From Mytilus trossulus (taxonomy: Eukaryota), in assembly GCF_036588685.1 (NCBI RefSeq), contig NC_086376.1, positions 35,278,001 to 35,342,000 on the forward strand: DNA of 64,000 nt, given 5' to 3'. The notes beneath the pieces are model-generated. The model made no database searches and was not told the origin of the DNA. It saw only the letters and a list, made by a program, of their open reading frames with translations. Every line of letters starts with the position of its first letter. The first letter of the stretch is position 1. The position numbers and the translations under genes were made by a program. Below, piece by piece: positions 17 to 64,000 of the stretch.

Positions 17-190
17 AATAAAGGCAACAGTAGTATACCGCTGATCAGAATTCATAAATCGATTAAAAAAAACAAATCTTGGTTACAAACTAAAACTGAG
101 GGTATTACATCAAATATAAGAGAAGAAGAACGACACAACAGAAACAATATTTGCAACACAAACAAAAACTAACTATAAGATAACAATAAC
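17..190. repeat. Dispersed repeat (ATAAAGGCAACAGTAGTATA… family)
   Basis: A second copy lies at 2630-2790. Confidence 0.7.
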
Positions 191-5200: not shown

Positions 5201-8200
5201 GGGGGAAATAGTATGGCTTTTATTGGTTATTGTTTTATAAAACATGTTATTCTATGTGGTGTTTTGACTGGACACAAGTAACTCGTAGGATAAATTAGCT
5301 TAACAATATGCCACAATTGTTAACACAAATGATGAGCATACACCTGCAGTAGATTGGAACTGCACATTTCCTAAAATGGTACTGTTTGAACAAATTCAAA
5401 TGGAAGTAACTAATTATCATCAATTGATGTATATGCTTTGTTTTTCTGTATGAACATGATATTGTTAATAATGTATACAAACAGAAACACTTAAATCATG
5501 ACATTGATTTAAGCAAATTGTTCTTCAAGTGAATATTCCAAACATTTATTAATATATGTTTCAACTGTAAGTTCTATACGACATATTATATTTGAGACAA
5601 TATATTATAGGGCACGACTGGAAGTTTGGTGATACTAATGGTGGACCAGATAGTATAGGAACTGTTTTAGATGTAAGAAGAGAAGGAAAAGTTGTGGTGA
5701 GTATAACCTTTAAAATCATGCAGATTCTACTTGTATCGTTACAAAACGCATTAAAATTTATAAAACGTTACAAAACCTAGAACTTATTATCTTGCAGTGA
5801 ACAAACCATCTTTCAATATAATTGAGAATGGAAATGGGGAATGTGTCAAAGAGACAACAACCCGACCAAATAAAAAAACAACAGCAGAAGGTCATCAACA
5901 GGTCTTCAATGTAGCGAGAAATTCCCGCACCCGGAGACGTCCTTCAGCTGGCCCCTAAACAAATGTATATACTAGTTCAGCGATAATGAATGCCATACTA
6001 ATTTCCAAATTGTACACAAGAAACTAAAATTAAAATAATACAAGATTAACAAAGGCCAGAGGCTCCTGACTTGGAACAGGCGCAAAAAATGCGGCGGGGT
6101 TAAACATGTTTGTGAGATCTCAACCCTCCCCCTATACCTCTAACCAATGTAGAAAAGAAAACGCATAACAATACGCACATTGAAATTCAGTTCAAGAGAA
6201 GTCCGAGTCTGATGTCAGAAGATGTAACAAAAGAAAAAAAACAAAATGACAATAATACATAATTAACAACAGACTACTAGCAGTTAACTGACATGCCAGC
6301 TTCAGACTTCAATTAAACTGCCTGAAGGTTATGATTTCATCATATGAACATCAGGCACAATCCTTCCCGTTAGGGGTTTAGTATCATACCATCATAACAT
6401 ATATGAGAAGAACATAACCCGTGTCATGCCAACAACTGTTTTTTAGAATAAATGTGTTTAGTTCCGACGCAAAGACATTATCAGTGACTCAATATTAACA
6501 CCAAAATTTGCAATCTTTATTGACTTGACAACAGTATCGTAATTATATCCCTTCTTAATAAGTCTATTCAAAGGTTTTGTAAGTTTCTGAGGTGAATACT
6601 GATACCTTTGTGCTTTATAAAGAATATTTCAATATGCATACATTTTGCTATTTGAAGACAATTTTCGTTTTTATAATTTAAGGTAAGATGGGACTGTAAA
6701 CGCACAGGCCTATATAAGATGGGACATAAAGGACGGTTCGAAATTCGATTAAAGTAAGTATTTTAAAAAGAACCATACGTCAGTAGAGAAACATCCTGTA
6801 AATTTATCATTGAAATGTATAAACTTTGAAAAGCATTTCAAAGAAATTTAGACTCTTGAACAAATTTGAGGACAAGAAGATGCATAATTAGATTCTATGG
6901 TGTCATATCCTCAAAGACATTGCATTATAGTGATAGTAAAAGTTGTGTGTTTTAGCTTTTAAATTGAAATTCACTGACTGAGCAAGCAAACTAATAATAT
7001 ACATCCATATTAACTGCTTTATTATATTCAAATTTACATTAAATTATGCATTGTCATTACAAAGAGATGGCAATGCCCAAACTAGTCGACAAGCCAGGGA
7101 ACGAATTCCAGGACGTCGGCATGCTAGACGTCGATCAATGTCAGACGAGGAAGATGAATTTGTACCTGATGTACCCACTACATCTACAAAACATGCCAGC
7201 GACTACGTCATTCCTATCTATTCAGATTCAACAGGTACTCTTCTCTCTGTATGGCATTTACTTTATGAAGTATTAACTTTTGTTTATAATTGTATATGTT
7301 AACAATTAAAAATATATTTCAGCTCACTCTGTCTAATGATGATTCAAAAAGAAATCAAACTTATGTCAGTCAAAGGTGACCAAAAAGTAATGACTTTTAT
7401 TTATAGTTAATAATATCACATATATTCTCTACCTAGTATAATAAAAACTTCAACCTTTGATCTTTTAACACAGTAAGCGCTATTTGGGAGTATCAAGACT
7501 GTTCTGATTGGAAGAAGTATCCTGATGAAATCAATGTAAAAATTGAAAGGGCTTATCAGAGGAAACAGAGGAAAACCATTATCGAAATCGATCGTACAAC
7601 GTAAGTCAATCTTATGTTATAGTTTAATATATTGCTAGTAAAGTTCTGTGAAAATCTGTTAAAATACCCAATATGTTCCTTGTCAGATGTTAGTTATCAT
7701 TAATATACCATCAACTTAATATTTAAGGGTATAAAAATAAAAAAGGCTTGGATAGAACAGCCTCAGTTTTTAAGGTTACATACCGAAATTTGATGATCTT
7801 TCTTTTTTTATTAATTGCTTTTTCTATGACGTCATATTTTAAGATAAGAAGTTAGCAATATCCTTTAACTCTACTTTCCGCTACATAGATGATGTTCTTT
7901 CACTAAATAATTCAAAATTTGGTGATTCTATCCCATTGAACTAGAGATAAAGGATACTACAGATACAGTTAAGTCGGCTTCATATCTTGACTTACATCTA
8001 GAAATTGACAATGAGGGTCATTTGAAAACAAAACTTTACGACAAAAGAGATGATTTCAATTGTGAACTTTCCATTTCTTAGTAGCAACATTTCAGCAGCA
8101 CCTGCATACGGAGTATATATCTCCCAATTGATACGATATTCCCGTGCTTGCATTTCCTATCATGATTTCCTTGATAGAGGGTTGCTGCTCACAAGGAAGC

Positions 8201-9805
8201 TATGAAACCAAGAGTTCCAAATTGTGAAGTTGAAATCATCCATTCGTAAATTTTACGGACGCCATCACGAGTTGGTTGACCGTTATGGAATAACCGTTTT
8301 ATAAATGATATCGGATAAGTTCATTACGTCGTAACTACAATCCCCTTCCATTTCATGAATGTGACCTACCGAATTAGACTAATTACCGGATTTGTTATCG
8401 CATAAGTAACACGACGGGGGCCACATGTGGAGCAGGATCTGCTTACCCTTCCGGAGCACCTGAGATCACTCCTAGTTTTTGGTGGTGTTCATGTTGTTTA
8501 TTCTTTAGTTTTCTATGTTGTGTCATGTGTACTATTGTTTGTCTGTTTGTCTTTTTCATTTGTAGCCATGGCGTTGTCAGTTTGTTTTAGATTTATGAGT
8601 TTGACTGTCCCTTTGGTATCTTTCGTCCCTCTTTTAAGGGACCATGCATAAAAGAGGGACGAAAGATACCAAAGGAACAGTCAAACTCATAAGTGACCCT
8701 TTAGTAGTGGTGGACTGATTAAAGATACTTTTATAAAACTAGATATCATCGGAATCCGAATATTCTTTTGTTTATAATGAAATAAAAATAAAGTGTACTT
8801 TTAATAATATAAAAAAGTTTTATCCATAGAAAATGGGGAAAACATTGCCTAATCTAAGCTTAAAAAAACTGAAATTAGGTCAGTTGCAATCCCATGAAGA
8901 CCTGATACATTAACGTTTTTCCTAATCAAAACTGTATGAATTTCATAGATTTTTACCTGGTCTTTCAAAACATTCATGCTTCAGGGTACGTTTGCCGGAT
9001 CCGAAAAGAGCTACAGTGGCTGCAAATACGTTTTCAATTTTCACTGCCAAAAAAAAATGTTTACAGTGTTGTCTCCCCTCAAAACATGTATATTTAATCT
9101 AATTTTTTAAATTATTTAATCATTCAACCTGTTTTAATTGAAGTTAATAAACACATTTTTTACAACCAAATACAAAAAACATGATACTTTGTCACCAATT
9201 ATGTTGATAAAAGGGAAATCCCTCCATGTCTTTTTTTTTGTCTGTTTCATTTTTAGCCATGGCATTGTCAGTTTATTTTCTATTTATAAGTTTGACTGTC
9301 CCTCTGGTATCGTTCGTCCCTCTTTCTTAATTTAAAAGTTGACATAGTTGTATCTTTATGGACCTGAACAAAGTGTACATATGATTCAGCATAAAACAAA
9401 TATAGATTGTGCAAAGAATTATTTAAATATAATGCAACAATATATTCTGGTCTCTTATTTAGGATATTCACATGACTTTCGTTGCAGGTATGAAGTACAT
9501 TTTTCTAAAATGGAACAAGAAAATCCACAAAACAAATCGAAAGTAACAGTAAGAAGACGAGGTTGGTTTTCTTATAACTTATATCACCTAGATAAAGGCT
9601 GTAATTTTATTAATCACCTGTTGGCTCTGACAGTTTTTATTTTCAATATTATAGTAATCTAAATAAATGTAATGAAGATAATGCATATGTTTGATCGGTC
9701 CGTTTTAATTTTTTCAAATAAAAAAAAGTCACAAAAAATCTGCTAATATTGAATTCACAAATTCTAAAATATCTAAATAAATAGTATTTATCTTTTTCAG
9801 ACTGA
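2221..9805 (+). CDS. Multi-exon gene encoding a protein with 2x MIB/HERC2 domains and a C-terminal WWE domain (5' part not identified, probably upstream of the window)
   Basis: Ten exons with AG/GT boundaries and compatible phases: 2221-2307, 2884-2991, 3949-4135, 4993-5136, 5611-5696, 6683-6753, 7065-7234, 7474-7600, 9488-9561, 9801-9805 (TGA). Translation gives GDRVRRGPDWSFGDQD...GTV...WVEWDHG and GCKVVRGHDWKFGDTNGG...GTV...VRWD...YKMGHKGRFEI (MIB/HERC2), then WEYQDCSDWKKYPDEINVKIERAY...YEVHFSKMEQEN...VRRR (WWE). The first two exons are less certain. Confidence 0.85.
4584..4833 (+). mobile_element. Decayed tRNA-derived SINE with V-domain-like core
   Basis: A box-like GAGTGGTCTAAG, B box-like GAGTTTGAACCCC, core TTTCCTCTTCCTACTCCAGTTTCT and (TCAA)n tail. 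Reverse fragments near 17665-17775 and 37150-37260. Confidence 0.6.
5819..6630 (-). mobile_element. Dispersed retroelement 3' fragment (probably Penelope-like), family A
   Basis: Starts AATTGAGAATGGAAATGGGGAATGTGTCAAAGAGACAAC on the + strand. Near-identical copies lie at 11623-12075, 40356-41100 and 43357-44125. All share one end and are variably truncated at the other. Confidence 0.7.
7841..8692 (+). mobile_element. 5'-truncated Penelope-like retroelement (RT C-terminal half and 3' end) with an inverted tail
   Basis: Frameshifted translation FRYIDDVLSLNN…SASYLDLHLEID…KTKLYDKRDDF…SSNISAAPAYGVYISQLIRYSRAC…KFYGRHHELVDRYG. The 3' 44 bp are duplicated in inverted orientation (8593-8636 / 8649-8692). 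Confidence 0.8.
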
Positions 9806-26334: not shown

Positions 26335-26909
26335 GATAAAGTTTGGGATTATGTCAGTTTGAGTGGAACTCTTTATGGTAAGTCATTGATAAGTCAGTAT
26401 AAAGAAAACCTCTAATGAAAAGTCAATATAAGGTATGCAGTTGTATTAGCATTGACACATCTAATAATTTCCATAGCGATTTTTATACATCACGTGCACA
26501 TGCTCAATCTTAATCTATTGACTTTGAAACTTTGCAAAGTTCAAGTTAAAGTTTGAGACAGTGTCAGATCCAGAGAAACTATAATTCATTTGAAAGTAGT
26601 TTAAAGTTCAAATGTTCGAGTTTTGCCATTTAAATATCAACATCTTAATTACATACGGTCAATACTCCTCTCTTTGACAAAAAAACATATTTCTTAGGGA
26701 CGGGTTATTAAAAAGTTTTGTATTTTTAAAAGGAGCTCCTGAAATAGAATAGGACCTCTATAATTCAAATTCAGGATATCTATAAATCACGGCTTTTCTT
26801 CTTCTGGCATAGATTACCTTAGCTGTATTTGGCAAAACTTTTGGGAATTTTGGTCCTTAATGCTCTTCAACTTCGTACTTTATTTGGCCGTTTTAACTTT
26901 TGGTTCGAG

Positions 26910-26951
26910 CGTCACTGATGAGTCTTTTGTAAACGAAACGCGCGTCTGGCG
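26910..26951 (+). ncRNA. Type I hammerhead ribozyme within a dispersed repeat (~26795-26992)
   Basis: Stem I CGUCA/UGGCG, core CUGAUGA, stem II GUCU-UUUGU-AAAC (one mismatch), GAAA, palindromic stem III ACGCGCGU, and a GUC cleavage triplet (after C26946). Confidence 0.75.
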
Positions 26952-28770
26952 TATATACAAAATTTAGTCCTGGTATCTATGATGAGTTTATTCACTCAAC
27001 GTTCCTGCAATATTTCAGAATCTCCCATCATTTTCGTCTTTTGTACTCTATAATTATATATTTGTTGTAACAATTATTCAAGTATTTTCTTTCCTAAATG
27101 TGCAGCAGCTTCTTATTTTGAAAGAGATGACATATCAATGGAAATAATACCCCACCCACACATTTGTTCACCATTAAACTCGTATTGCAGATGCAGTCAA
27201 TGTTCTGTGTTGATACCAAGTGAGTGAGACTGGGAACATAATTATATACTGACTGTTAGATATTCTCTTCCCAGGATGATTTAAAAAAATAAAAAAGATT
27301 TATATGTTTTTTAAATCATTTGCAGTTAACCTAATTAATCGAGAAATCAGTGATAAAACTGTTTTGTGAAATGCCTGTAATAGTCATGCGAATGTAGCTC
27401 AAGTCGAGAATCGTAAAACTATCGAGTTATTTCTCTTTTGATAATGATTTGAAACTTTCTATCAGCAGGATATTACTATTCTATAAGTTTGTTGGTTCGT
27501 CTTTGATCTTTTTTATAAATGAGTTGTGTCCTTTTCAAGATATTTTTTGAATTGCACCTTTTATTTGACTTTTGGTTTATGATTGATGAAGGCAACAGTA
27601 CACACTACTTTATACAAAGACGACTTCATCTGGAGGAATAAATTTCCTTTATTTTGTGTTTCCTGTCCCCCATAACATAATACACATTGAACTGTTCAAA
27701 CATTTTTCTTTCTTCATGATATTTAGTTATAATTAATTATGATAATATATATGAATATATATTGTATTATTCAGCATGTATGGTGTTGCTTTTCAACATT
27801 TTATACATGTATAAAAACGATGATGTATATACATGTATGAAAACGATGCTGTATAAATGTTACAGTGAATTTGTATAATCAGGGATTATGCCAGTAGAAT
27901 CCCTAAAATGTTCAGGGATTATACAGAATAACTAAAATGTACTAAAATATATAACATATTGAAATATAATAAAAGTTAACAGTATTATATCAAACTAATA
28001 ACCATAATATTGTAAAACATTACTGAGGCTTAATATATTAATATGAAAGACATAAAAATATTGAAATGTTAAAAAACAATATAATTAAATGATAAGCCAA
28101 ATATATATTGAATAATTGATGCTTTGTTTTTAATACTGACTTTATCAGTATTAGTATCAAGCGCGCCCTTTTTCATACCGACTGTATCAGTATTAATAAT
28201 AAGCGAGCCCACAAGGGCGGGTTGATAAAGTCAGTATGAAAATATTAAATGGCATAATGATTATTATTTGCATCGTATTGTTTTATTAATTGTTTTGGGG
28301 TTGAGAATATGAATTAAAATGAAAATGTCATTAACACTATTTTTATGCGTACAATCGTTTTGATAAATGTAAATTTTATGTTCAATATTTTAAAAATAAA
28401 CATTTTATTTACAAACTTGATTTGGGTGGCTTCGACTATTACACATGTGCCCTGCTTTTCTACAGGTATATCTACCAAATTCATATTTGTTTTTACCACA
28501 ATGTCAACATTTAAAAAACCTTGTCCCCCATATCGAATCATATTTTACGGTACGTCTCAGGGAAATAGAGTTTTCAGCACAAATATCTGAAGGTACCAAT
28601 GAAGGGAAATCAGCAACCTCAAACTGATTTCGTGTATTAAAGATCCGAGCAGGGTCCATACTATTTGACAAGGCGATATCCTTCTTAAATCTGTTTGTGA
28701 ATTAGATGTTTCACAAAATTCTATCAAACTGTCCAAGTTGGACAGACGCGTTTTCCTGTCACTATATATA

Positions 28771-37118: not shown

Positions 37119-40100
37119 TAAGGACAACTTTGATATAAAATGAAGATGTATTGATTGATTGATTAATTGTATTAAAAGTCACTTTCAGTAAGTAGTAGTT
37201 GAATACAGCTACCACTATTTGGGGTTCGAACACAAAAAATCAGTTATAACAGGCTAATGATCGCTTTACATGAACTAGTTAAACAACTCAGTCATCATTG
37301 AAAGAAGCTTGAATATCAAATTTGAAATCAAATGATGGCAAGAATTGCTACCCAGTAATAACTATGATCAGTGGATGTTTTGATAAAAACGATCAAATTT
37401 TACCAGTAAAATGCAATGCCATTTGCCAGTTTTAAAATTAAACCGTTATTCTAATAAATGGACGAAATTTTATAAAGATGTTTATCTTTCCAGCCTTAAC
37501 TGTTTTAATATGAATTCTTATTTAAAGCTCGCGTGGTTTTATAGGCATTAGAACTAATCTCAGACTATTTATGGTTACATAAGGCTGCACACTGTATCAA
37601 CAATAACTATAAAGAACTTTTTATTAGCTCTATCAAACTATCCAATTTTATTTGAACTATTAAAATAATGACTTAAGAAATACGAGAAAACTATGGTTAA
37701 GAACCAGCCATGATAGATCAATAGGAACGTCAAATATTTACTTGCATTAGAAGATGCACGTGAGTCACAGAATAACCCAATTCAAAATCTGGGAAGAAAG
37801 ATGATCTATCAATATTACTGAATCATACAAAAACTGTAATTGCATAGAAAATATAGATAGTCATACTGTTTCTATGATTTGTCTGTACTCTATCAGAGGG
37901 TCAAACAAATCGACCAGATTTATTCCTATACTTTAAGGTGTATCATGGACATCAAGGTCAAATAAAGCCAATACAATCATTCCTTTACTATAAGGCACAA
38001 CTACAAGGATCATAGAGTACCATATTACTAGAATTAAAAACAAGTTAAGATGATAAGATACGAAAAACTGTAGAGAAAATATACGAGTAATTGAATGATT
38101 GATCAAAGTCCAATTACTTCATTCACATCTTTAAAAGAAAATCACGCAAAATGTTTTATAATTATTTGAATAAATGTAATGTTAATGGGAAAAAAATACG
38201 CTTTAAATTTGAGATTCGATTTCTTCCGGATCCGGTATTTAAAACATTACACTTATAAAATATAGTCCTATGTAGGAATCTACTTCAAATTATCTAACAC
38301 ACAGATTGCCACCATCAAAGCAAGTCAACGAAATATATAAATATATATATATATATGTAGCTGTCTTCAGGCCGTGCAAGGCTGAAATTAAATGTAACAT
38401 CATTTTCATAATTGATATCTAGTTCTATTGATACTGTTTGGTCTCATAACGAAGAAGGATTTGATATCGCTTGATATTGACTAGAGTTGTTTAATTTCAA
38501 TATTATAATAGACGAGCCTTGGCGAGTTTATAATTATCATTGAAATAAATAATGATATTTAATATCGAGTTATGTCTAGTTTTCATGAGTTGTTAAGCGT
38601 ATCACTTCTTTATATGCAGAAACTATCATTGTCCTGGTGTTATATAACCGATTCACTTCAAATACGTCTAGTTTGCTTGGGAAAAAATTGCCAGAAACCC
38701 AGACTACTCTAAACATCATGTTTCCATTGTTTGTAGACGGTTTAAAATAGAACCAGATTTGACAAAAATATAGTTCCATGTGAATCGTGTTAGTGTTTTG
38801 CATGTTATTGAAGAATCATAAATTTTCATTATGAAGGGGGAAATGAGCATGACCTTTGAAAGTCGTCATTTGACACAAAGAGTAGCCAATGTAAATGTCG
38901 CAATTTTAAACACACATTGCAAAACATGGCAATCAAACCATTGGATTATTTTGAATCACTATTTTATATCACTCGCCGACCAGTGTGATACAAGACATTT
39001 ATATGTCTGCTTGCGGCATATGGATAATAAGTCACAATCATAAGAGACTGTAAAATGCATAGAAATATACTAGTTTTAGTGATTCCTTTGGAAAATCTTT
39101 TTTTCGATGGGGGTATTCATATATAATGTATGCGAATACATTTTCTAAATGTATGAAAAATCATCCAAAATTAACCAGATTTTCTTACCTAAAAATTGTT
39201 CGTGAAGTCTTTTTCTTTTGGGTTTGTTGAATTGTTGTTTATTTATTTTTGACAACTATAGGTGAAACTGTGCAAATATTATAAAACGAAAGCCACAGTG
39301 ATAAACTTGTGAGATTTCAAAATATAAACGAAATAGGGGGGGGGATAGTAGTGCAATTTAAGTTACACTTGTTTTCTTTTTTTTTTTATCCAGGGATACT
39401 TTCTTTATTTGAGAGTCTAGACAAGTAAGACTTGTTACGAGGAAAAAAATAGTCATTATTATTCTTGTAAATGGTATATTAACCAACCTTTAGATTTTCT
39501 ACTTTTCAACTGATTTTTTTTAATAAGATAACAATTTATTTAAGAATAAGGTCTAATATTGTTTGTTAATCTAAGAAAACAAAATTAAACCATCCAAGAT
39601 GAAATATGGATTTGTATACATCTAATTCTAAGTTACGTAGACGTCTGGCGTAGGAATATATTACTCTGACGGGTTAAGAGGCCATTACTGTGATGGAAAT
39701 AACATGTAGTTGTGATTTAAAGAAATAATACTCATACATCAGAAGTGATTATAACGTATACAATGGACTATTATAAATCTAGACAAATCTAAATAAGGCT
39801 GTTCTATCTGTGATTTATCTAGCTTGTTTTCATGACAAGTGATTGATGGAATTCTGAAAAACTTTGATCATGATAGCAAAGATAGTATGGTGTCTTTCCA
39901 AATTAGAAAATATAATATAACATGTGGGTAGCATTATAAATAGACCATCGGCAAAGAGGAAATTATCATGCAGCTACAGAACATATAAGTACCTGCCTGA
40001 TTTTAGAGGAGTTTATACTGCTCAGTTCTCAGTTTGTATTGTACTGTTGATTATTCTTCTGATTGTTTTTCCCCTCTTCTTTTTTTTCTTTCTTTTCAAT

Positions 40101-41911: not shown

Positions 41912-41939
41912 AAGCATTTTGAAAAGAACGAAATAAGTT

Positions 41940-42698
41940 ATGAATATGAATTTCTTAGCAGACAGAGTACCTTTGTTGAACTTGGATGACCTTGAAGAAG
42001 AGTCATCTTCTGGTTATGACTCTCCAGTATTTGTATCCGACTCGGAACCCAGTTTGTCGGCATCGAGAGGAGAATCAGATCACAGTTACAGCGGTTCTTC
42101 TTCAGAGAATGACATTTCAAGTGAAAGTGACGATGAAGGTGATGATTTAGATGACCTTGAAGATCCTGGTGAAACTATGCACGTGACCAGTACAGAAACA
42201 GTGGTCAACAATATCAAGTACATATTGTCTATGCCACAACTTTGTGATGTCACATTTGAAATTGGACCACAACGCTTCCTTGTCTATGGTTTAAAGGCAG
42301 TCATTGGGTCACGAAGTAAAGTACTTCAAGATATGATGCTACAACAGAGTAGTCCACAGATGCAGAGAAAAACAAAGAAAAACAACAACCAAAACATATC
42401 CATACATAACTACGACATTGATGTATTTAGACAATTTCTCAACTTTGTACACACCGGAAGTGTCGTTATGGACGTAACTACAGTTGTTGGAATAGCATGT
42501 GCTGCTGAAGAATATGATGTTCCAGAGTTAAGTGATGCATGCTTGGGGTATTTGAAACGCTGTTCCACAACAACAACCAACAAACCAGTACTTCAGACCG
42601 AGGCCGACAGATATTCTGGTCACCAAGTTGCAAGGAAGATTAAGAGCATACTTATGAAGGAAGTGAGTCAACTGAAAAGAAGAGAGACTGTTGTTTAA
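41940..42698 (+). CDS. Intronless BTB/POZ-domain protein, serine-enriched protein (gprs)-like, copy 1
   Basis: 252-aa ORF with an acidic/Ser-rich N-terminus, then BTB (MPQLCDVTFEIG…LKAVIGSRSKVL…FRQFLNFVHTG…AAEEYDVPELSDAC). Upstream TATA box and downstream AATAAA. Confidence 0.88.
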   Translation: MNMNFLADRVPLLNLDDLEEESSSGYDSPVFVSDSEPSLSASRGESDHSYSGSSSENDISSESDDEGDDLDDLEDPGETMHVTSTETVVNNIKYILSMPQLCDVTFEIGPQRFLVYGLKAVIGSRSKVLQDMMLQQSSPQMQRKTKKNNNQNISIHNYDIDVFRQFLNFVHTGSVVMDVTTVVGIACAAEEYDVPELSDACLGYLKRCSTTTTNKPVLQTEADRYSGHQVARKIKSILMKEVSQLKRRETVV

Positions 42699-45299: not shown

Positions 45300-46040
45300 A
45301 TATTAGGAATAGAAAGTCAATTACCAAATGTCAAAATCATAGCGCAAACACATCAAACGACTGAATAACAGCTGTTATATTCCTGACTTGGTACAGACAT
45401 TTTCGTATGTAGCAAATGATGGATGGAACCTGGTTCTATAACTAGATAACCCTCTCACTTGTATGACAATATCATAAAATTCCATTATATTAACAACAAA
45501 GTGTGAACAAAATAAACAGACATGATATGTAAAATTAGGGGTAAAGGGGTCAACATATTTTTATAATCTTTATCACTTTAAAACAAACAAATATATAAAC
45601 AAAGAAAAACAAAAGGGAATATAGACAACGTACACTAATAAAAACGAAAGACAAGAACACAAAAAATTGCCATAGCTGAATAACACAATGACGGGATGTA
45701 TAAGTACCGAGCCACGTCAAATTAACATCAACAACATTATGATTAGGCCAAACAGTTAAAGTAATAATTTAAACAGACAAATAAGAGAACATTATAACAC
45801 GTAATAATGATGTAAACAATGTCAGTTCCTAAAATCTATACTATGAGACCATCGTTTATTATTTGTGAAGTACTAGTGGTAGGGAATATTTATCAACAAG
45901 ATCTTGGTATCTTCTAAAGAACTCTTTGAGAAAGGGACGAGACGTTCTTTGGTATCACCCTTGTTCGTCAACTTTCTGCTCAGACACTGATGACGTTTTA
46001 CAAAGAATTAAAATCGTCTCGTATTTCATACATTCTGGTA
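45300..46040 (-). mobile_element. Decayed Penelope-like 3' fragment (second family)
   Basis: Minus strand gives frameshifted KRHQCLSRKLTNKG…TKERL…FFRRYQDLVDKYS…SQIINDGL, which parallels the RT C-terminus at 8170-8320. Confidence 0.5.
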
Positions 46041-47401
46041 TTGAGATGACCAGTAATGTCAAATTCGAAAAATTAGTCTAAAAATGAGGCAGAGGAAGCC
46101 TTGTCTGTTGTTTCTCTGGTGACTTGTTTTACTGCGTCTTTAAATTAATATCCTTTAAGAGATGTTTTTCAAAGGATCAATGTATCAACACAGATGGTCT
46201 TTAAATGTTGAGCTTTTTTTGTCGGAAGCTCCATAATATTTCTAAAGTTGACAAAACTATGCAGTTTTTAATTGATTGATAGGTAGACTTTCGAATTGCT
46301 AGTTAGTTACTTAAATCTGAGTTCTTTATTTATGAGATCTTAAAGAGATTTACAGAACAAAAAATAGAAAGTAAAAGCAAAGAATAAGCAGTAAAATTAA
46401 AGAATAGAAAAAATAGGGGAGAATATTAACTTATGACTTAAATATCGAATTCAAGAAATGAAGACCGCAAACCCCTATCAACCTTAAATCAAGACTTTAA
46501 TATAGCCGATTACGTATTTAAATCTTTTTTTAAAGATATCCTAATACATTTCACAATAGGAGGTAACAATATAATATATATTTAAATTTTCTGATATATT
46601 TAAGTCTCCAAACCCAAATTTGTAGATTAATGGCTTGGCGTAGACTAAGTTCTTTCTTTTAATGAATGGAATATATTCTGCGTGACAAAACAATAAAAAT
46701 CAAATATACTAGAATAAGTCGCTAGGTTTTTTCCAACCCCACCCCTGCTTTTTGAAAGTGTTTTTAAAATTATCCTTCTCCTTCCACTCCTAAATACATC
46801 CTTTTCTCGTCTACCATGACAACATGTTGTAATGATATACATGGTAAATATTTTCTCGTCTACCATGACAAGATGCATTAATGATATACATAGTAAATCT
46901 TCAGAGATGTCCACACACATGCCATTATAGAATGTCAAAATATCTTGGAAATGTTTAATCATTTCCTCTCCAAAATTGCATTATTTATATGATGAGTCCC
47001 ATGCTTGTCATATGAAAAGGTTGAAAGGTCTTCTTAAGGTTTTTTTTTTGTTTTTGTTAAATCAAGAAGAACTGCATCTTGTACAAAGTTCCATAATAAG
47101 TTTTGAACCCATGAAGATTAATTTTTAATTTAACACCAATCATTTTTTAATCAACGAAACAGAGAAACCAACAGTGAGTGTAATGGTCTAAGTTTAACAA
47201 TCGTTTTAAAGACCTAATTGAAGCATGAGTTTTATTTTGTAATTCAATACAAAGGAATTATATCATAAATAACAATTGATTTTTTCAAACAACTGAATTA
47301 AAATATAAAAGTGTGATAATTTCTTTATTTACCCGTTGTTAACTAGTTATAATTAATGATGAATAGAATTAAACTATTGTCAATATCTCAAATCAGTTAC
47401 A

Positions 47402-47512: not shown

Positions 47513-47542
47513 AAAGCAATTGAAAAATAATACGTTATAAAT

Positions 47543-48292
47543 ATGAACTTCTTAGCAGACAGAGTACCTTTGTTGAACTTGGATGACCTTGAAGAAGAGT
47601 CATCTTCTGGCTATGACTCTCCAGTGTTTGTATCCGACTCGGAACCCAGTTTGTCAGCATCGGGAGGAGAATCAGATAACAGCAACAGCGGTTCTTCTTC
47701 AGAGAATGACATTTCAAGTGAAAGTGACGATGAAGGTGATGATTTAGATGACCTTGAAGATCCTGGTGAAACCTTGCACGTGAACAGTACCGAAACAGTA
47801 GTCAACAATATCAAGTACATCTTGTCTATGCCACAACTTTGTGATGTCACATTTGAAATTGGACCACAACGCTTCCTTGTCTATGGTTTAAAGGCAGTCA
47901 TTGGGTCAAGAAGTAAAGTACTTCAAGATATGATGTTACAGAATAGTCCTCAGATGCACAGAAAAACAAAGAAAAACAACAATCAAAACATATTAATACA
48001 TAACTACGACATTGATGTGTTTAGACAATTCATCAACTTTGTACACACCGGAAGTGTCGTTATGGACGTGACTACAGTTGTTGGAATTACATGTGCTGCT
48101 GAAGATTTTGATGTTCCAGAGTTAAGTGATGCATGCTGGGGGTATTTGAAACGCTGTTCTGCGATAACGACCAACATACCAATACTTCAGAACGAGACCG
48201 ACAGATATTCTAATCACCAGGCTGCAAAGGAAATTAAGCGCATGCTGTTGAAAGAAGCAAGTTCAATGAAAAGAAAAGAGACGATTGTTTAA
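47543..48292 (+). CDS. Intronless BTB/POZ-domain protein, serine-enriched protein (gprs)-like, copy 2 (tandem paralog)
   Basis: 249-aa ORF highly similar to 41940-42698. The first ATG of copy 1 is ATA here, so the second Met is used. Confidence 0.88.
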   Translation: MNFLADRVPLLNLDDLEEESSSGYDSPVFVSDSEPSLSASGGESDNSNSGSSSENDISSESDDEGDDLDDLEDPGETLHVNSTETVVNNIKYILSMPQLCDVTFEIGPQRFLVYGLKAVIGSRSKVLQDMMLQNSPQMHRKTKKNNNQNILIHNYDIDVFRQFINFVHTGSVVMDVTTVVGITCAAEDFDVPELSDACWGYLKRCSAITTNIPILQNETDRYSNHQAAKEIKRMLLKEASSMKRKETIV

Positions 48293-55537: not shown

Positions 55538-56649
55538 CTGAAAGGTAAAATTATACAACAAAAGTATTTCATTATTATTTACATTATAAAACTTCTCGGC
55601 GTCGTTGAAACCGTAAAAGGAATTCGGTGGCGTGTACTACACGAGATATTTTTAGTTTGTATTTTTTTAACGGAAATAGAACAAACTATTGGTCTAAAAA
55701 GTTAATTAAGTTAATTCCACCTGATATTTAAAGACAATTGAATGTCAGGTTAATTATAATGTACTTAACCATTAGATTGAAAATTTTAAACTACGTTTAG
55801 CCTGTAATAGGTTGGGTATTTGATAGAACTTGTTTCTTTTTATGTATACTAAATGACGAATAAATACTTTTTGATTGTAATAATATACAAATTCATTTTG
55901 AACGACTATAAAACAGTTAAAAGTACGAATGGACTCATGTGGTTTAAATCTAAAGTACAATTAACAGACTGTAAACATTAATCAGACAGCTACCCAGCAA
56001 CTCAAAAAATATTTGAGTTATAATTCTCTCCAACAAGCGCCCATCTAAAGTAAAGCATTTATAATAAACAAGATGAATGAAAAACATCACAAATTAGACC
56101 AAAAAGTATATAACTTGACTCACAAAATTGACGATAAGCAAAAGTATCGAAACATTATGACAGATCAAAACAATGCCAATATATATCACTTAAGGACACA
56201 AACAAAATCAACATGACTCACAAAATTATCACACAAACATCAACAAAGTATCCCCAAAAATACCTAAACCGCATCAGTATGAAGGGAAGAATTACAAAAT
56301 AGACCAATCCAATATCATCAACAATTACAAAAAAAGAACACAGGTGTTTCCAACATAATTTCAACATGTTCAAAGTACACTAATAAAAGCATCACCACGA
56401 ACCACAAACAATGGATTTCGAAATATGTCTGAGCAGCATTAGCATAAATTCTGATATGGGCCTCCAAACATATAATTAACAGGAATCTTTTACAAGACAA
56501 CATAACTACTCATTAACGTTTGAAAAAAATAGAAAACATAAACTGTCTCAATATCAAATATACTTGACAAAGTATCAACACGAATAATTACTTTCAGAAA
56601 AAAAAAAAAGTATCAACATTTATATTTTATAACAAAATAGATACAAAAA

Positions 56650-57620
56650 AGTATAAACATGAATAACAAAATATTCACATCAAATTATCAACACGATTAA
56701 CAATATAGATTCAACAAAATATCAACACGAATAACAATACAGATTCAACAAAATTTCAACATGAATAACAATACAGATTCAACAAAATATCAACATGAAT
56801 AACAATATAGATTCAACCAAATATCAACATGAATAACAATATAGATACAACAAAATATCAACATGAATAACAATACAGATTCAACAAAATATCAACATGA
56901 ATAACAATATAGATACACCAAAATATCAACATTAATAACAATATAGATTCAACCAAATATCAACATGAATAACAATACAGATTCAACAAAATATCAACAT
57001 GAATAACAATATAGATTCAACCAAATATCATCATGAATAACAATATAGATACAACAAAATATCAACATGAATAACAATATAGATTCGACCAAATATCAAC
57101 ATGAATAACAATACAGATTTAACAAAATATCAACATGAATAACAATACAGATACAACAAAATATCAACATGAATAACAATATAGATACAACAAAATATCA
57201 ACATGAATAACAATATAGATTCAACAAAATATCAACATGAATAACAATATAGATACAACAAAATATCAACATGAATAACAATATAGATTCAACCAAATAT
57301 CAACATGAATAACAATATAGATTCAACCAAATATCAACATGAATAACAATATAGATACAACAAAATATCAACATGAATAACAATATAGATTCAACCAAAT
57401 ATCAACATGAATAACAATACAGATACAACATAATATCAACATGAATAACAATATAGATACAACAAAATATCAACATGAATAACAATATAGTTTCAACCAA
57501 ATATCAACACGAATAATAATATAGATTCAACAAAATCAACACGAATAACAATATATATTCAACAAAATATCAACACGAATAATAATATAGATTCAACAAA
57601 ATATCAACATGAATAACAAA
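56650..57620. repeat. 34-bp tandem satellite C (~28 units; degenerate continuation to ~57890 and at 61025-61420)
   Basis: Unit AACAAAATATCAACATGAATAACAATATAGATTC. Confidence 0.95.
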
Positions 57621-57961
57621 ATAAATACAACAACGCATAAACAAGTAAAATTAGAAACAACAAACGAGCATCAATATAAATAACAAAAAAAGATACTTCA
57701 AAATTTCAACATGAATAACAAACTATTTACAATATATTATAAACCTGAATAATAAATAAAAACAACGAAGCATCAATATGAATAACAAAATAGATACAAA
57801 CTAGCATTACCATGACTAGAAATAGAACCAACAAACTAGCATCAACAAAGATAACAAAATATATACTTGAAAGTTTCAACATTAATAATAAGAAAAGTTA
57901 CAGAGATGATTTCACCTTTCCAATTGTGAACTTTCCATTTCTAAGTAGCAACATTCCAACA

Positions 57962-60900
57962 GCTCCTTAAGGAGTCAATTGACCATTTAGGTCATGTTGA
58001 CTTATTAGTAGATCTTACTTTGCTTAACATTATTGCTGTTTACAGTTTATCGCTTTCTATAATAGTATTCAAGATAATAACCGAAAACAGCAATATTTCT
58101 TTAAAAACTACCAATTTGAGGACAGCAACCCAACAACCAGTTGTCCAATTCATCTGAAAATTTCAGGGCAGATAGATATTGACTTGATTAACAATTTAAC
58201 TTCTTTTCAGATTTGCTCTAAATGCTTTGGTTTCAGAGTTATAAGCCAAAATCTACATTTTATCCCTGTTCTATTTTTAGCCGTGGCGGCCATCTTGGTT
58301 GGATGGCCAGGTCATCGGACACATTTTTCAAACTAGATACCCCAGTGGCGGATTTACCGGCGGGGCACAGGGGGCACGTGCCCCCCAGTTCAGGTCACCA
58401 AAAAAATAAGTTCTAACATAATTTTATTGCTACTGAATCTTCTTATCTAGAGCGGAAATGAATCACAGCTTGATTTGACTTCTTAAACTGGCCGTTAATT
58501 AATGCCAGCGTCCACATGCGTGATTTATGACAACTTATCGATGGGTGTGTAAATATTGACACCTTTGTGTGTTTTTAATGTCTCTTTGCAAGCTTAAATT
58601 ATGGAAAATACATTTACATGTTGATTGGAATAGTACGAATTTTTATTGGTTTATAATACAATACAGATTAAGATCGATTACCAGGTGAAACTTCTGATCT
58701 GTGTTTTTAAAGAATAGGTACAAATTATATGTTTAATGTCGATTATGTTGGTATACATCTATATTTAGGTACTTAGTTTCTCTCCATTCCAAAATAAAGT
58801 ACTCACAATACCATTTTATTTAGAATTTATGTTTTTTCTCTCTTCAAAACTGTCTTTTTGTGAATTTCTTCAGCAACAAATCAAATCATTTGTTTTTTGA
58901 TACCATACACGTTTGTTTTTTAAATGGAATGTCCTATTTCCTTCCCTCTTATGTTCAAGGGAAATCGACGATTTGTCCCCCCCCCCCCCTTTTTTCACCG
59001 GTCTAGGAAAAACATGATGAATTGACATTTTCTTATAAAAAAAAATCATTAATAAAATGCTAAATTATTTTCCTAAGATCTATTTTGTAACTGAATCTGG
59101 GACGTAATCATTTCTTTGAATGCCTGAGCATACAGTTATATTTGTTTATTTTTCTTGTTTCAATTGCCATGTACATGTATGAGGCTAAAAAAAAGGTCAC
59201 CATTTGTAAGGATATGAAGGTGTTTTACAGATATTAGAATAATGTACAAAAAAGTAAGTCTAGAGAGCAAGACCAAATAAATATAGAGGTCATGAAGAAA
59301 ATATTGATTGATTGTATGTTGTTTAACGTCCAGTGGCAAATATTTGATGCATGTTGAGGACAAATGTAATAAAGATCAATTGGCAGGAAAAGAAAGTATA
59401 AAGTGAAATAGTAAAAACAAAGATCTAAAAATAAAGAGATATAGAAACGACCAGTGATCTGACCCCCCCCCCCTTTAGAAAAAAAAAACAACAACCAAAA
59501 ATCAAAACACTCACACTCGCATATACCGTATATACATCTCTAAAAAATCTAAAATTTTGGTTTCATGGTGCCCCCCCAGACATCAAGGTTCTGGATCCGC
59601 CCCTGTACCCAAAGGATGATTGTGGCCAACTTTGGATTAATTTGGCCCAGTAGTTTCAGTTTCAATGTTTACAGTTTATCTCTAATTATAATAATATTCA
59701 AGATAATAACCAAAAACAGCAAAATTTCCTCAAAATTACCAATCCAGGGGCAGCAACCCAACAACGGGTTGACTGATTCATCTGACAATTTCTTGGCAGA
59801 TAGATCTTGACCTGATAAACATTTTTACCCCGTGTCAGATTTCCACTAAATGCTTTGGTTTTTATACAAGATACCCCAAAGATGATTGTGGCCAAGTTTG
59901 GATTAATTTGGCCCAGAAGTTTCAGAGGAGAAGATTTTTGAAAAAGATTACTTAGATTTATGAAAAATGGTTAAAAATTGGCTATAAAGGCAATAACTCC
60001 TAAAGGGGTCAATTGAACATTTCAGTCAGGTTGACTTATTAGTAAATCTAACTTTGCAGAACATTATTGCTGTTTACAGTTTATCTCTATCTATAATAAT
60101 ATTCAAAATAATATAACCAAAAACAGCATTTTTTTTTCAAAATTACCAATTCAGGGGCAGCAACCGAACAGCTGGTTGACTGATTCATCTGACAATTTCA
60201 GGCAGATAGATCTTGACCTGATAAACATTTTTACCCCATGTCAGATTTCCACTAAATGCTTTGGTTTTTGAGTTATAAGCCAAAAACTGCATTTTACCCC
60301 TGTTTTCTATTTTTAGCCGTGGCGGTTATCCTGGTTGGTTGACCGAGTCACGCCTCACATTTTTATACAAGATACCCCAAAGATGATTGTGGCCAAGTTT
60401 GGATTAATTTGGCCCAGTAGTTTCAGAGAAGAAGATTTTTGTAAAAGATTACTTAGATTTATGAAAAATGGTTAAACATTGATTTTAAAGGGCAATAACT
60501 CCTAAAGGGGTCAACTGACCATTTCGGTCATGTTGACTTATTAGTAAATTTAACTTTGCAGAACATTATTGCTGTTTACAGTTTATCTCTATCTTTAATA
60601 ATATTCAAGATAATAACCAAAAACAGAAATTTTTTTTCAAAATTACCAATTCAGGGGCAGCAACCCAACAACTGGTTGACCGATTCATCTGAAAATTCCA
60701 AGGCAGATAGATCTTCACCTGTGAAACAATTTCACCCCATGTCAGATTTCCTCTAAATGCTTTGGTTTTGGAGTTATAAGCCAAAAACTGCATTTTATCC
60801 CTATATTCTATTTTAAGCTGTGGCGGCCATCTTGGTTGGTTGACCGGGTGACGCCACACATTTTTTAAACTAGATACCCCAATAATGATTGTGGCCAAGT

Positions 60901-61025
60901 TTGGTTCAATTTGGCCCAGTAGTTTCAGAGGAGAAGATTTTTGTAAAAGCTAACGACGAACGGACGACGACGACGGACGACGGACGACGGACGCCAAGTG
61001 ATGAGAAAAGCTCACTTGGCCCTTT
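57962..61025 (-). mobile_element. HINE/pearl-like element with ~500-bp internal tandem repeats, one end missing
   Basis: Terminal hairpin AGCTCACTTGGCCC-TTT-GGGCCAGGTGAGCT plus A-run (61009-61025 region), (GAC/GGAC)n microsatellite at 60953-60993, and internal repeats starting near 59868, 60369 and 60871. Confidence 0.78.
58343..59605. mobile_element. TIR DNA element with 5-bp TSD (hAT5-like), nested in the HINE
   Basis: CAGTGGCGGAT…ATCCGCCCCTG flanked by TACCC/TACCC. The HINE repeat sequence resumes across the insertion. Confidence 0.78.
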
Positions 61026-61415
61026 GGGCCAGGTGAGCTAAAAAACTAGTATCAACATAAAAATATTTACAACAAATTATCAACCTGAATAACAAAATAT
61101 GCACAACAAATTATCAACATGGACAATAAAAATACCTGAATAATAAAATGGTCACATCTAAGTGTCAACCTGAATAATAAAATAAATAAAAACAACAAAG
61201 CATCAATACAAATATATTAAAAAAAAAAAAAAAGATACAACAAAGCATCAACTTTCATATCAAAATAAATACAACAAAGTTTTAGCAAGAATAACAAAAT
61301 AAATACAACAAAGTTTTAGCAAGAATTACAAAATAAATACAACAAAGTTTCAGCAAGAATAACAAAATAAATACAACAAAGTTTCAGCAAGAATAACAAA
61401 ATAAATACAACAAAG

Positions 61416-62132
61416 TTTCATTTTTTTACATCACTGGGTCGACACCTCTGCTGGTGGAACATCAGTCCCCGATGGTATAATCAGCTCAGTAGTCGATATT
61501 TCGGAACTTTGGTACTGACGTGATTTAACAAACAAAAAAATTAAATTGTCCGTTTATCAATTTTGAAATTTTTAAGAAACTAAGGTTTCAACTCCCTCAG
61601 GCAAAGTTGGCTTTAGATGACTTTGACTTTCAATTTTATGTATTTTTGTCATATAGCTCTTCAGCGGTTTCGGTACTTATACATCCTCGAATTTCAAATG
61701 TTTGGCTTTGAGCTTTCCCGATGAAGGTAAATCCAGAAAAGCACTTCGGACGCATCGAAATTATTAAACGTGTTGTTTTCATTTTTTTACATCACTGGTT
61801 CGACACCTCTGCTGGTGAACCATCAGTCCCCGATGGTATAATCAGCTCAGTAGTCGGTATTTCGGAACTTTGGTACTGACATGATTTAACAAAAAAAAAA
61901 TTAAATTGTCCGTTTATAAATTTTGAAATTTTTAAGAAACTAAGGTTTCAACTCCCTCAGGCAAAGTTGGCTTTAGATGACTTTGACTTTCAATTTTATG
62001 TATTTTTGTCATATAGCTCTTCAACAGTTTCGGTACTTATACATCCTCCGATTTCAAATGTTTGGCTTTGAGTGTTCCTGATGAGGCTAAATCCAGAAAA
62101 GCGCTTCAGACTCAAAGAGTTGTTTTCAATTT
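61416..62132 (+). mobile_element. Non-LTR retrozyme-like tandem dimer (~360-bp unit, one type I hammerhead ribozyme per unit)
   Basis: Two near-identical direct repeats with period 360-361. Hammerhead motifs at 61710-61753 (CCGATGA…GAAAAGCACTTC GGACGC) and 62070-62113 (CTGATGA…GAAAAGCGCTTC AGACTC). Confidence 0.75.
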
Positions 62133-64000
62133 TGTAATACGTCAAATTAATTTATGATGTGGCATTGCTATAATTATACGTTCAAAAGTATGTTTATGGT
62201 AAAATTCGTCAGTGGGTTTTAGACTTAAACTTGCCCATTATAATATAGGGTCAGATCTTTTGACGTCAATAGTAAGTATTAGATAGGATATTTTCATGTA
62301 AAAGGAGTTTATAGCATGTAATAAGATATATATTTAAACTATGTACATTTGCACAGTTAACCATAATGCACCAGTTACACATGAGCCACCAGCTGTCAAT
62401 GTATCGCCCTGAAAGTTATGACTTATATTACAGAATACCTGTGTCAAGAATATGTCTATCCTTGCTCGATAATGAATTATCACAGAATACGACAAAACAC
62501 CAATTTTGTACTTGATTTGAGCGAATCGAATGGTGCCAATGATAGAGCAGAAACTATTTAGCCTTCCGGAATTATTAAATCTACTTTCGATTTTGGTCCA
62601 GTTGTATTACTCTTTTGAACAGTGTTTTGTGCACTTTTATTTTTATTGGTCTATATTTCTTATGCCATGAAGTTTGGTATCCTTCTGCCATTTAGGATTT
62701 TTTATTCCACCTTTGGTTGTATAAATATATAAAATGTTAAGAATTGTTTAATATATACCGCAAGGTCTAATTTAACTTCAGTTTTTATCACAGCAAAACA
62801 TGCTAGTAAAAAAGATATCGGATTGTCTTACTAATGAAGAGGTTTTAACAACTTGTACGTAAATCCTGGCATTTTGTCTCTTGTTAGTCTTCACAAGAGA
62901 CATAGAATTTAAGCTGATGTTGCAAGTAGCACGATAGTGTTGTTTTTCATTTGACATAATTAAACCGCTTGAGTGACATCAAATTCTTTGACATAAAACA
63001 GATGAGTTAAATCGAGATCAACATGCAATAAAGTGTGTGTTCCTTTATTGAAAATTCAAGCTCATATTTAACAACTCTCTTAAGCGTTGCAAGATAATAA
63101 TGAAGTAAATATGAAAATAATTCAATCAATGAAAAAAACTTTTATAGCTGACTATGCGGTATGGGCTTTGCTCATTGTAAAATGACGTACAGTCACCTAT
63201 AGTTGTTAATTTGTTTAATAATCAATTCAATGAAAAGTTATTTTGAATTTCAACAGTTGAAAAAATCTGAACACATTTAGTAGTTAGATTTTCACATTCG
63301 TTACATTTGAAAATAAAGCAATGCTTTACTTTTTAAAAAAATCGGATATTTGGTGTGGGAGCCACTATGGGGAATTTAAGATTTAGAAGTATTTTAGAAA
63401 GATCACGTCTTCTTTTACTATTTAGATTTTTGACGAATGTGACCTAAGGGAGCAACCATTTACTTCAAAGGGGGCTATGGGTTTATAGTAAGAAAAATTT
63501 AGTTTTTTTATCGCGATCAATCAGATTATTTTTTTTTCAAACTTAACACGATAAGGTATGGAGGGAATTGTCATTCAGAATAATTTTTTTGTTATCTGCT
63601 TGACCAGAATTTTACCTCCATCAAATTGGGAATCAGAATATTATTCTAGAAAAAAACATAACCATACCCGAACACCCCTATTATAGTTTTGAAACAATGA
63701 AACAAATTAAAAAAACATCTGTTATAAATAGATCATCTTCACCATGCTGCAGATTCAAATTATAGTATCAACTTCACGTAAAATATTTGTAGAATCTTCA
63801 TTATCATCATTGCAGTTAAATATTATTTTTCTAAATGTCAATTTAGATAATAACAATCTTTCCCCCGTGTTTACATAGAAATTGTTCGTACATTATCAAT
63901 CAACCGAGTGACTAAATGTTATTCCACCTTTATAAGATAAGTTTTTATGTATCTCAATAATCGGAACACTAAATGTGTGTTGATGGAAAAGAAAGTTTTG

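Follow-up and report, generated by a model that had tools for sequence, protein, structure and literature searches.

Two head-to-tail repeats, each with a hammerhead ribozyme motif, lie in a 64,000-nt stretch of Mytilus trossulus DNA which we refer to as the window. They raise two questions: whether such a locus can still release an RNA circle, as an earlier note on this DNA had claimed, and which enzyme copies an element without an open reading frame. In the accessible portions of the literature, both the mobilising enzyme of animal retrozymes and the role of RNA circles as transposition intermediates are left open. Judged from its sequence, the array is likely a decayed, inactive copy of a mussel non-LTR retrozyme family. 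Nearly all mapped arrays of this family end at a fixed site 5′ of a predicted hairpin shared with Naiad elements, and we consider it probable that they are copied by the Naiad enzyme.

The array comprises two units of 360 bp that are 94% alike by pairwise alignment, in agreement with Tandem Repeats Finder (61416-62111, period 360, 1.9 copies, 94% matches). The region has a GC content of 0.34, and no stop-to-stop frame of at least 70 aa overlaps 61416-62133; the earlier description of two non-coding head-to-tail repeats of ~360 bp thus stands. The proposed cut sites, C61747 and C62107, are both the C of a UUC triplet and lie 360 nt apart, as had been stated. The first five bases of the array (61416-61420) are equally compatible with the adjoining 34-bp satellite, and the last tail (62108-62133) has a deletion of ~13 nt. 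An Rfam search of 58000-64000 at E<=5 gave five matches, none of them a hammerhead or another credible family. The proposed type I hammerhead is recovered by alignment and exact-match counts and not as an Rfam match, and the hairpin treated below is not a described Rfam family at this threshold. The features are collected in Table 1.

Table 1. Retrozyme and Naiad features of the window (positions in the window)
Feature	Position	Strand	Remarks
Two-unit retrozyme array, family 1	61416..62133	+	~+28..33 to ~+39 in cut-site numbering, almost exactly 2.0 units
360-nt monomer between two putative cuts	61748..62107	+	putative release, unlikely here
Terminal tail ending in a T-run	62108..62133	+	putative reverse-transcription start; family-wide array end (86/92)
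34-bp minisatellite abutting the array 5′ end	61257..61420	+	host DNA, outside the element
Type I hammerhead, copy 1	61712..61753	+	U4C, mismatched U-C in stem I, loop 3 reading GCAC; putative cut after C61747
Type I hammerhead, copy 2	62072..62113	+	core intact; in stem I, C-A next to the core and U-U at a second pair; putative cut after C62107
Naiad-type nested hairpin, copy 1	61433..61490	+	inner stem broken (61443, 61473, 61479, shared with copy 2)
Naiad-type nested hairpin, copy 2	61794..61851	+	same shared lesions, plus 61799 and 61818
5′-truncated Naiad A copy (RT end and 3′ UTR)	7841..8637	+	92% to Naiad A; shares the T-run end point; from a candidate helper family, with no tie to this insertion
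Fragments of Naiad B-like RT end and 3′ UTR	45312..46115	-	
5′-truncated copy of sister family 2 (Rtz375 type)	26798..26990	+	intact hammerhead core; homologous fixed 3′ end

The window also holds long 34-bp and 53-bp minisatellite arrays (56629-57799, 35296-37119 and 22419-24506) and ~500-bp tandem repeats with internal inverted repeats and ends in GACGACG runs (59600-61010 and 58030-58350), probably a mobile repeat. Two 253-aa BTB/POZ frames (41937-42698 and 47531-48292) likely represent a duplicated gene, and a DUF167/YggU exon is found at 11078-11398 on the minus strand.

A search of the 1.3-Gb genome returned 3523 first-look candidates on many contigs; the 40 that were scored have units of ~349-351 bp, 82-87% identical to the window unit. 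With its 360-bp units, low GC content and this number of dispersed relatives, the array falls within the description of retrozymes as head-to-tail, low-GC repeats of ~170-400 bp. The intact 44-nt ribozyme has 538 exact matches in the genome and its reversed control none, so the hammerhead reconstructed in the earlier note is the common form of the family. At the family level the repeats are dispersed and non-coding and carry a hammerhead in each unit, which bears out their assignment to non-LTR retrozymes with type I hammerheads.

Family 1, to which the array belongs, aligns to a second family along the whole unit. Between the two the ribozyme core is kept, and both sides have changed at the core-adjacent stem I pair and at the second stem III pair (alignment of seven rows, effectively two lineages). 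The palindromic element described earlier as stem III is real; however, the structure is a stem of 2 bp closed by a palindromic GCGC loop. Family 1 departs from the canonical type I hammerhead, with its paired 10.1-11.1 position and a stem II of ~4 bp. In 179 of 195 units, from a sampling that favoured the common form, 10.1-11.1 is an A-A followed by two G-C pairs, and this stem II is readable as containing two bulged A's. On that reading, the 5′ A corresponds to the additional base that PLE (Penelope-like element) ribozymes are known to carry before 10.1 (PMC4209133). A mispair at 10.1-11.1 served as a rejection criterion in PMC3088659. In addition, the predicted fold of family 1 pairs stem I with stem III instead. 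Because of this non-canonical ribozyme and the competing fold, family 1 may not make circles.

Further families complete the picture. The printed Rtz375 sequence matches family 2 by eye in machine-read text (PMC4918200, Additional file 11). At window 4300-4460, a decayed family 2 remnant lies in an apparent intron after a MIB/HERC2-like exon (3949-4182, Pfam score below the cut-off). Family 2b (354 bp) forms very long arrays of dozens of units with recurring variant patterns near the start of one contig (C1, 113122-288329, loci L262-L291). A ~550-bp tandem repeat (L216:422-1010, L222:6876-7470, L224) carries a type I hammerhead with a CUGAAGA core, and family 3 (L171:120-900, L172, L297) combines a hammerhead like that of the 550-bp family with the Naiad hairpin, which suggests that hammerhead and hairpin modules reassort. 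The Naiad hairpin model gave no match in the ~550-bp family itself, possibly a retrozyme family with another helper and, as such, a natural control. The paper texts that were searched contained none of the four family motifs.

The ends of the arrays point to how they were written. We mapped 92 distinct arrays, most of them chosen for an exact ribozyme, a criterion that leaves the position of the 3′ end free. Where several loci overlapped in one array, the array entered the count a single time, and one locus (L034) with flanks in common with L031 was dropped, reducing 93 to 92. The 3′ end falls at +35 to +45 after the cut site in 86 of the 92 arrays, the remaining six ending at +28, +48, +56, +194, +294 and +344, and beyond +40 similarity to the unit breaks off in the last unit of an array, whereas it continues in interior units. 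The 5′ ends are scattered, not distinguishable from uniform (chi-square p=0.16), and 57 of the 92 arrays are longer than one unit. The tail in the window stops at the same T-run as the family arrays. Of 86 arrays, 35 are flanked by target duplications of at least 5 nt, compared with 18% over 300 shuffles, none of which exceeded 30%, and 24 of these 35 start with TT; the other 51 arrays have no duplication of this length, and none was seen at the window locus. In family 2, 29 of 30 rows, two of which have common flanks, end at the homologous site. Inverted 5′ arms at 13 of 93 loci scored 61-86, a range that unmatched AT-rich shuffles also reached in the same script.

A fixed 3′ end, scattered 5′ ends and target duplications together form the pattern of target-primed reverse transcription from a single internal start. 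With the start located 40 nt downstream of the cut site, only ~40 nt could be copied from a cut linear monomer; we infer that the template is continuous across the cut site, either a circle or an uncut multimer. At common variant sites, pairs of units differ at 0.30 positions within arrays and at 2.11 between arrays (22 and 40 arrays, respectively). Such homogeneity is expected if each array was copied from one unit, and local duplication can give the same result. Two long family 1 arrays of 10 and 9 units (L115 and L116) show blocks of period 3 and period 4, which may reflect later block duplication or the copying of a multimeric circle. The blocks indicate that duplication of DNA in place contributes to array structure as well, and it could make arrays homogeneous.

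Directly 3′ of the family array end lies a predicted nested hairpin of ~60 nt. It is contained in the only part of the unit with similarity to Naiads: positions +36 to +105 are 81% identical to the 5′ start of Naiad A over 70 nt, and the match to Naiad B reaches 78-80% over 45 nt. Against the two Naiads this segment scores 86 and 51, where shuffles reach at most 34 and 33 and the other segments stay at shuffle level. The same nested hairpin is predicted in retrozyme families 1, 2, 2b and 3 as well as in Naiads A and B (z -2.3 and -3.2). Two-sided changes occur in 4 of 22 hairpin pairs; the covariation term is -0.03, from the few independent lineages that one genome offers. Twelve fixed differences separate two family 1 subfamilies, none of them in the hairpin or the ribozyme, and the hairpin shows a modest shortage of variants (p=0.01 or 0.07, depending on the threshold).

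The genome contains 13,435 occurrences of the hairpin core and none of the control sequence. The core is also present in 11 curated consensus records of Naiads (CGi, Sglo, Tgra, Pmar, Mcor, Mgal, Bpla, Skow-1, Pfla-1, Pfla-2 and Cmel), in 10 of them no more than ~60 nt from the start, and by eye the outer stems of these records differ in sequence and keep their pairing. Apart from Mcor and Mgal, the record labels presumably span oysters, other bivalves and hemichordates. In both Naiads of the mussel genome the segment is located between the T-run that terminates the 3′ UTR and the first ATG, ~20 nt or less ahead of the latter.

The candidate helpers themselves are abundant. As the earlier note had claimed, the window contains remnants of Penelope-like reverse transcriptases (Table 1); they were located by motif scan and tblastn, both far from the array, and Pfam found no RT among the 52 of 72 window frames that were searched. 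A Penelope-like helper is supported. The earlier note had missed the fixed 3′ end and the Naiad-type hairpin, both of which suggest a helper from the Naiads, a clade without canonical hammerheads. Directly behind the Naiad A remnant, its final 45 nt are repeated in inverted orientation (8577-8692).

Genome-wide, Naiad A has 24,890 candidates, and open frames of at least 1000 aa were found in 11 of 150 scored copies. Its non-tandem ends fall at -1 to +7 of the junction used by the retrozymes in 26 of 26 cases, and 2 of 28 run on. In 10 of the 12 Naiad A loci that reach the Naiad A start, the hairpin lies behind the element's own 3′ UTR. All 21 Naiad B ends lie at +1 to +11, with nine copies running on, a biased count as the query ran up to the junction. 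Naiad B was among the further Penelope-like families retrieved by a GIY-YIG search. It is a young element of 1056 aa (L212) with GIY-YIG at 183-273, CDC at 488, DKA at 615 and YxDD at ~900, and it starts like Naiad_Mgal in the PMC8557442 supplement. Naiad A carries a GIY-type motif in the N-terminal part of L208 and is ~60% identical to Naiad B in the RT part. Naiad B occurs on many contigs and includes a perfect tandem with identical 1056-aa frames (L212:3544-9899, period 4277, 100% over 2 kb); it has an extra hairpin inserted in the shared motif. Tandem Naiads were seen with periods of 4277 and 3370.

The retrozyme family thus has both an end junction and a cis RNA element in common with Naiads, which we take as the marks of a Naiad dependant. 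The array is not a Naiad PLE itself, as it has no ORF and resembles Naiads only at +36 to +105. Origin of the retrozyme from a whole pLTR of Naiad A, Naiad B or the fetched PLEs with a C-terminal endonuclease was considered and rejected, no such similarity being seen.

From these elements a cycle can be proposed. Intact arrays would be transcribed, and their hammerheads would cut out monomers of ~350 nt. A host ligase would then close the monomers, by extension to family 1 of the host-ligase circularisation demonstrated for a mussel retrozyme in the accessible text of PMC7229834. The GIY-YIG/RT protein of a Naiad would bind the hairpin, nick AT-rich DNA and prime on the U-run just 5′ of the hairpin. 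The reverse transcriptase would finally copy backwards through the cut site, round the circle or along an uncut multimer, and fall off at random. In its fullest form, this proposal describes retrozymes as two-module circles, in which a circle-making hammerhead is joined to a Naiad-derived hairpin that sets the start of reverse transcription, with the Naiad enzyme writing the arrays by rolling; we hold the chances of this fuller form to be evenly balanced. If it is true, Naiads would have in this hairpin, which is conserved between bivalves and hemichordates, their first defined initiation element acting in cis, and the way in which they form tandem pseudo-LTRs would be explained.

The same helper and the same start could also serve a different template. 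The RNA copied might be an uncut linear multimer, circles being a side product and arrays being homogenised by local duplication or gene conversion. This reading accounts equally well for the end pattern, and an anole PLE studied in vitro worked without hammerhead cleavage and used mainly uncut RNA as its substrate (PMC11167929, as far as its accessible text goes). The weak stem II of family 1 with its predicted competing fold and the higher-order blocks of L115 and L116 agree with it, and tandem Naiads would supply a downstream hairpin without any circle. However, each dispersed short array has close to one haplotype at the common variant sites, and circles are the main form of mussel retrozyme RNA according to the available text of PMC7229834. 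Moreover, the hammerhead stems covary between families 1 and 2, so that cleavage appears to be selected. On balance we judge the uncut multimer unlikely, and the circle remains our preferred template.

A second alternative concerns the hairpin. It could be a Naiad segment that the retrozymes captured and that serves a different function, as a promoter, a transcript end or a signal for translation, in which case the fixed end would be a transcript stop and another retroelement would do the copying, for instance a hammerhead-bearing PLE with a C-terminal endonuclease. Intact-looking elements of that type do exist in this genome: L221 and L226 encode a C-terminal-endonuclease PLE, with a canonical-looking hammerhead ~100 nt behind the stop codon and then a TA run. 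The position of the hairpin so close to the first ATG of both Naiads would also fit such a function. Yet the retrozyme has no similarity to the sequence of these PLEs, and the hairpin model found no match in 14 C-terminal-endonuclease loci (L214-L217 and L221-L230), some 5′ ends of which may lie outside the loci. Furthermore, the paired changes argue for an RNA structure, non-coding retrozymes keep the hairpin, and 57 of 92 arrays read through the supposed end. We therefore regard this reading as very improbable and retain the hairpin as the candidate start signal of a Naiad enzyme.

We now return to the window. Position by position, the coordinates, the reconstructed consensus and the lesions given earlier all check out, and alignment confirms that each ribozyme has its own lesions. 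In copy 1, G>T at 61714 affects stem I, U4C at 61719 changes the core to CCGAUGA, and G>A at 61743 abolishes the loop 3 palindrome. Copy 2 differs by C>T at 62073, A>G at 62085, G>C at 62087, G>A at 62108 and G>T at 62112, which weakens stem I by disrupting the pair adjoining the core (now C-A) and one further pair. A core change of the U4C type and a broken core-adjacent pairing were both used to reject hammerheads in the accessible text of PMC3088659. Two consecutive complete hammerheads, by which 10.64898/2026.07.22.740005 recognises an active locus, are thus absent from the array. Release requires both cuts and both ribozymes are damaged; release of a circle is unlikely here, and the claim that the locus is able to produce one of ~360 nt is not supported, whereas the suspicion of decay is.

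Activity of this very locus, with release of a 360-nt circle of its own, perhaps by a dimeric ribozyme or with protein help, is accordingly far-fetched: its two ribozymes lie 360 nt apart, the core of copy 2 is intact, the 5′ half of copy 2 would fully pair in stem I with the 3′ strand of copy 1, and a U4C variant supports viroid infection in vivo (PMC3088659, accessible text), but lesions sit at or beside the core in both ribozymes, copy 1 has lost the palindrome of its loop 3, neither copy retains an unbroken hairpin and the variant has no copies elsewhere in the genome, a diagnostic 23-mer of the locus occurring only in the window.

Two candidate subfamilies were rejected on similar counts. 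The CCGAUGA variant of copy 1 has three matches genome-wide, one of them in the window, and is not a spreading subfamily; neither is there a 360-nt subfamily, both matches of the 23-mer being inside the window.

The history of the array can be read from its substitutions. Compared with the family majority over 321 positions, both copies share 22 substitutions, 16 of which occur in three other arrays or fewer, and an 8-bp insertion; private substitutions number 9 and 10. Three of the shared changes break the inner stem of the hairpin (Table 1), the fold of which is lost in both copies. Since the array measures ~2.0 units and these three changes are shared, the locus most likely consisted at first of roughly a single unit, which decayed before a local duplication produced the second. 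On the shared branch, the 42-nt ribozyme has no changes where ~3 would be expected, a weak hint of an older active source rather than of decay followed by duplication.

Four raw RNA runs, of a species that may differ from that of the window and thus evidence neither for nor against expression of the locus, gave 76 reads on 61640-62400 when mapped at 95%, 72 of them partial fits. In the same runs no reads fell on the unique flank 62134-62400, and the reads carry family alleles at the listed differences. Three RNA reads contain a back-joint, which is equally compatible with tandem copies and with circles.

As a locus, the array is a relic, a decayed copy of an already described type of element; the point of interest is the probable link, at the family level, to the start signal of hammerhead-less Naiads. 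The fixed end and the shared hairpin name a helper (Naiad A or B, with intact open frames), a start site and a 350-nt substrate, all open to testing in an in vitro assay that is already established. A handle of 60 nt by which small circles become templates for a retrotransposon enzyme would also be relevant to RNA-templated gene insertion. We found no paper that states a link between Naiads and retrozymes; the supplements of PMC7229834 and of the preprint, as well as subscription journals, may bear on this point.

Among known systems, the closest are the non-LTR retrozymes of Mytilus galloprovincialis (PMC7229834 and PMC4918200, in their accessible parts). Like family 1, they are non-coding tandem repeats of 350-390 bp in thousands of copies, with a type I hammerhead, a 2-bp stem III and a palindromic loop. 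PMC7229834 reports ~5000 type I ribozymes in such repeats, cleavage at ~0.1 per minute and abundant circles. Self-cleavage was demonstrated there for a cloned mussel repeat, which may be of family 1 or of another family (the text describes two ribozyme families and the clone Mg353, and family 2b has units of 354 bp). Rtz375 (375 nt) represents a sister family, from which family 1 differs by its 2-bp stem II flanked by two A's. In its accessible text, PMC7229834 names PLEs only as candidates and gives no fixed end, hairpin or Naiad link.

The Naiad PLEs (PMC8557442, Naiad_Mgal) resemble family 1 in their 5′ hairpin, T-run junction, 5′ truncation and partial tandems. In contrast to Naiads, family 1 has no ORF and possesses a hammerhead, and only ~70 of its 349 nt are common to both. 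According to the portion of PMC8557442 at hand, Naiads lack canonical hammerheads; the hairpin is not mentioned in that portion, where the word 'stem-loop' has no occurrences. Vertebrate retrozymes derived from pLTRs are, like family 1, non-autonomous PLE dependants: Li et al. 2026 (10.64898/2026.07.22.740005) describe Xenopus retrozymes similar to hammerhead-bearing pLTRs and, in the accessible text, leave the mechanism and invertebrates open. Family 1, unlike these, has only a hairpin in common with its presumed helper, which belongs to a clade without canonical hammerheads.

The enzymology has its best parallel in PAc, a Poseidon PLE of the anole (PMC11167929, accessible text). In purified form, its protein makes nicks in AT-rich DNA, initiates reverse transcription at an internal position of the RNA and needs RNA 3′ of the start; its genomic ends mark the start sites, and uncut RNA is its main substrate. 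Internal initiation upstream of a cis-required RNA region and AT-rich targets are features which the mussel pattern has in common with PAc. PAc differs in being autonomous, in belonging to another clade, in carrying a hammerhead in its own pLTR and in using two start sites, whereas family 1 is non-autonomous with one narrow site. By this analogy, the mussel pattern likely fits initiation of the PAc type, in which the hairpin would be the handle, the U-run the start and the Naiad protein the enzyme.
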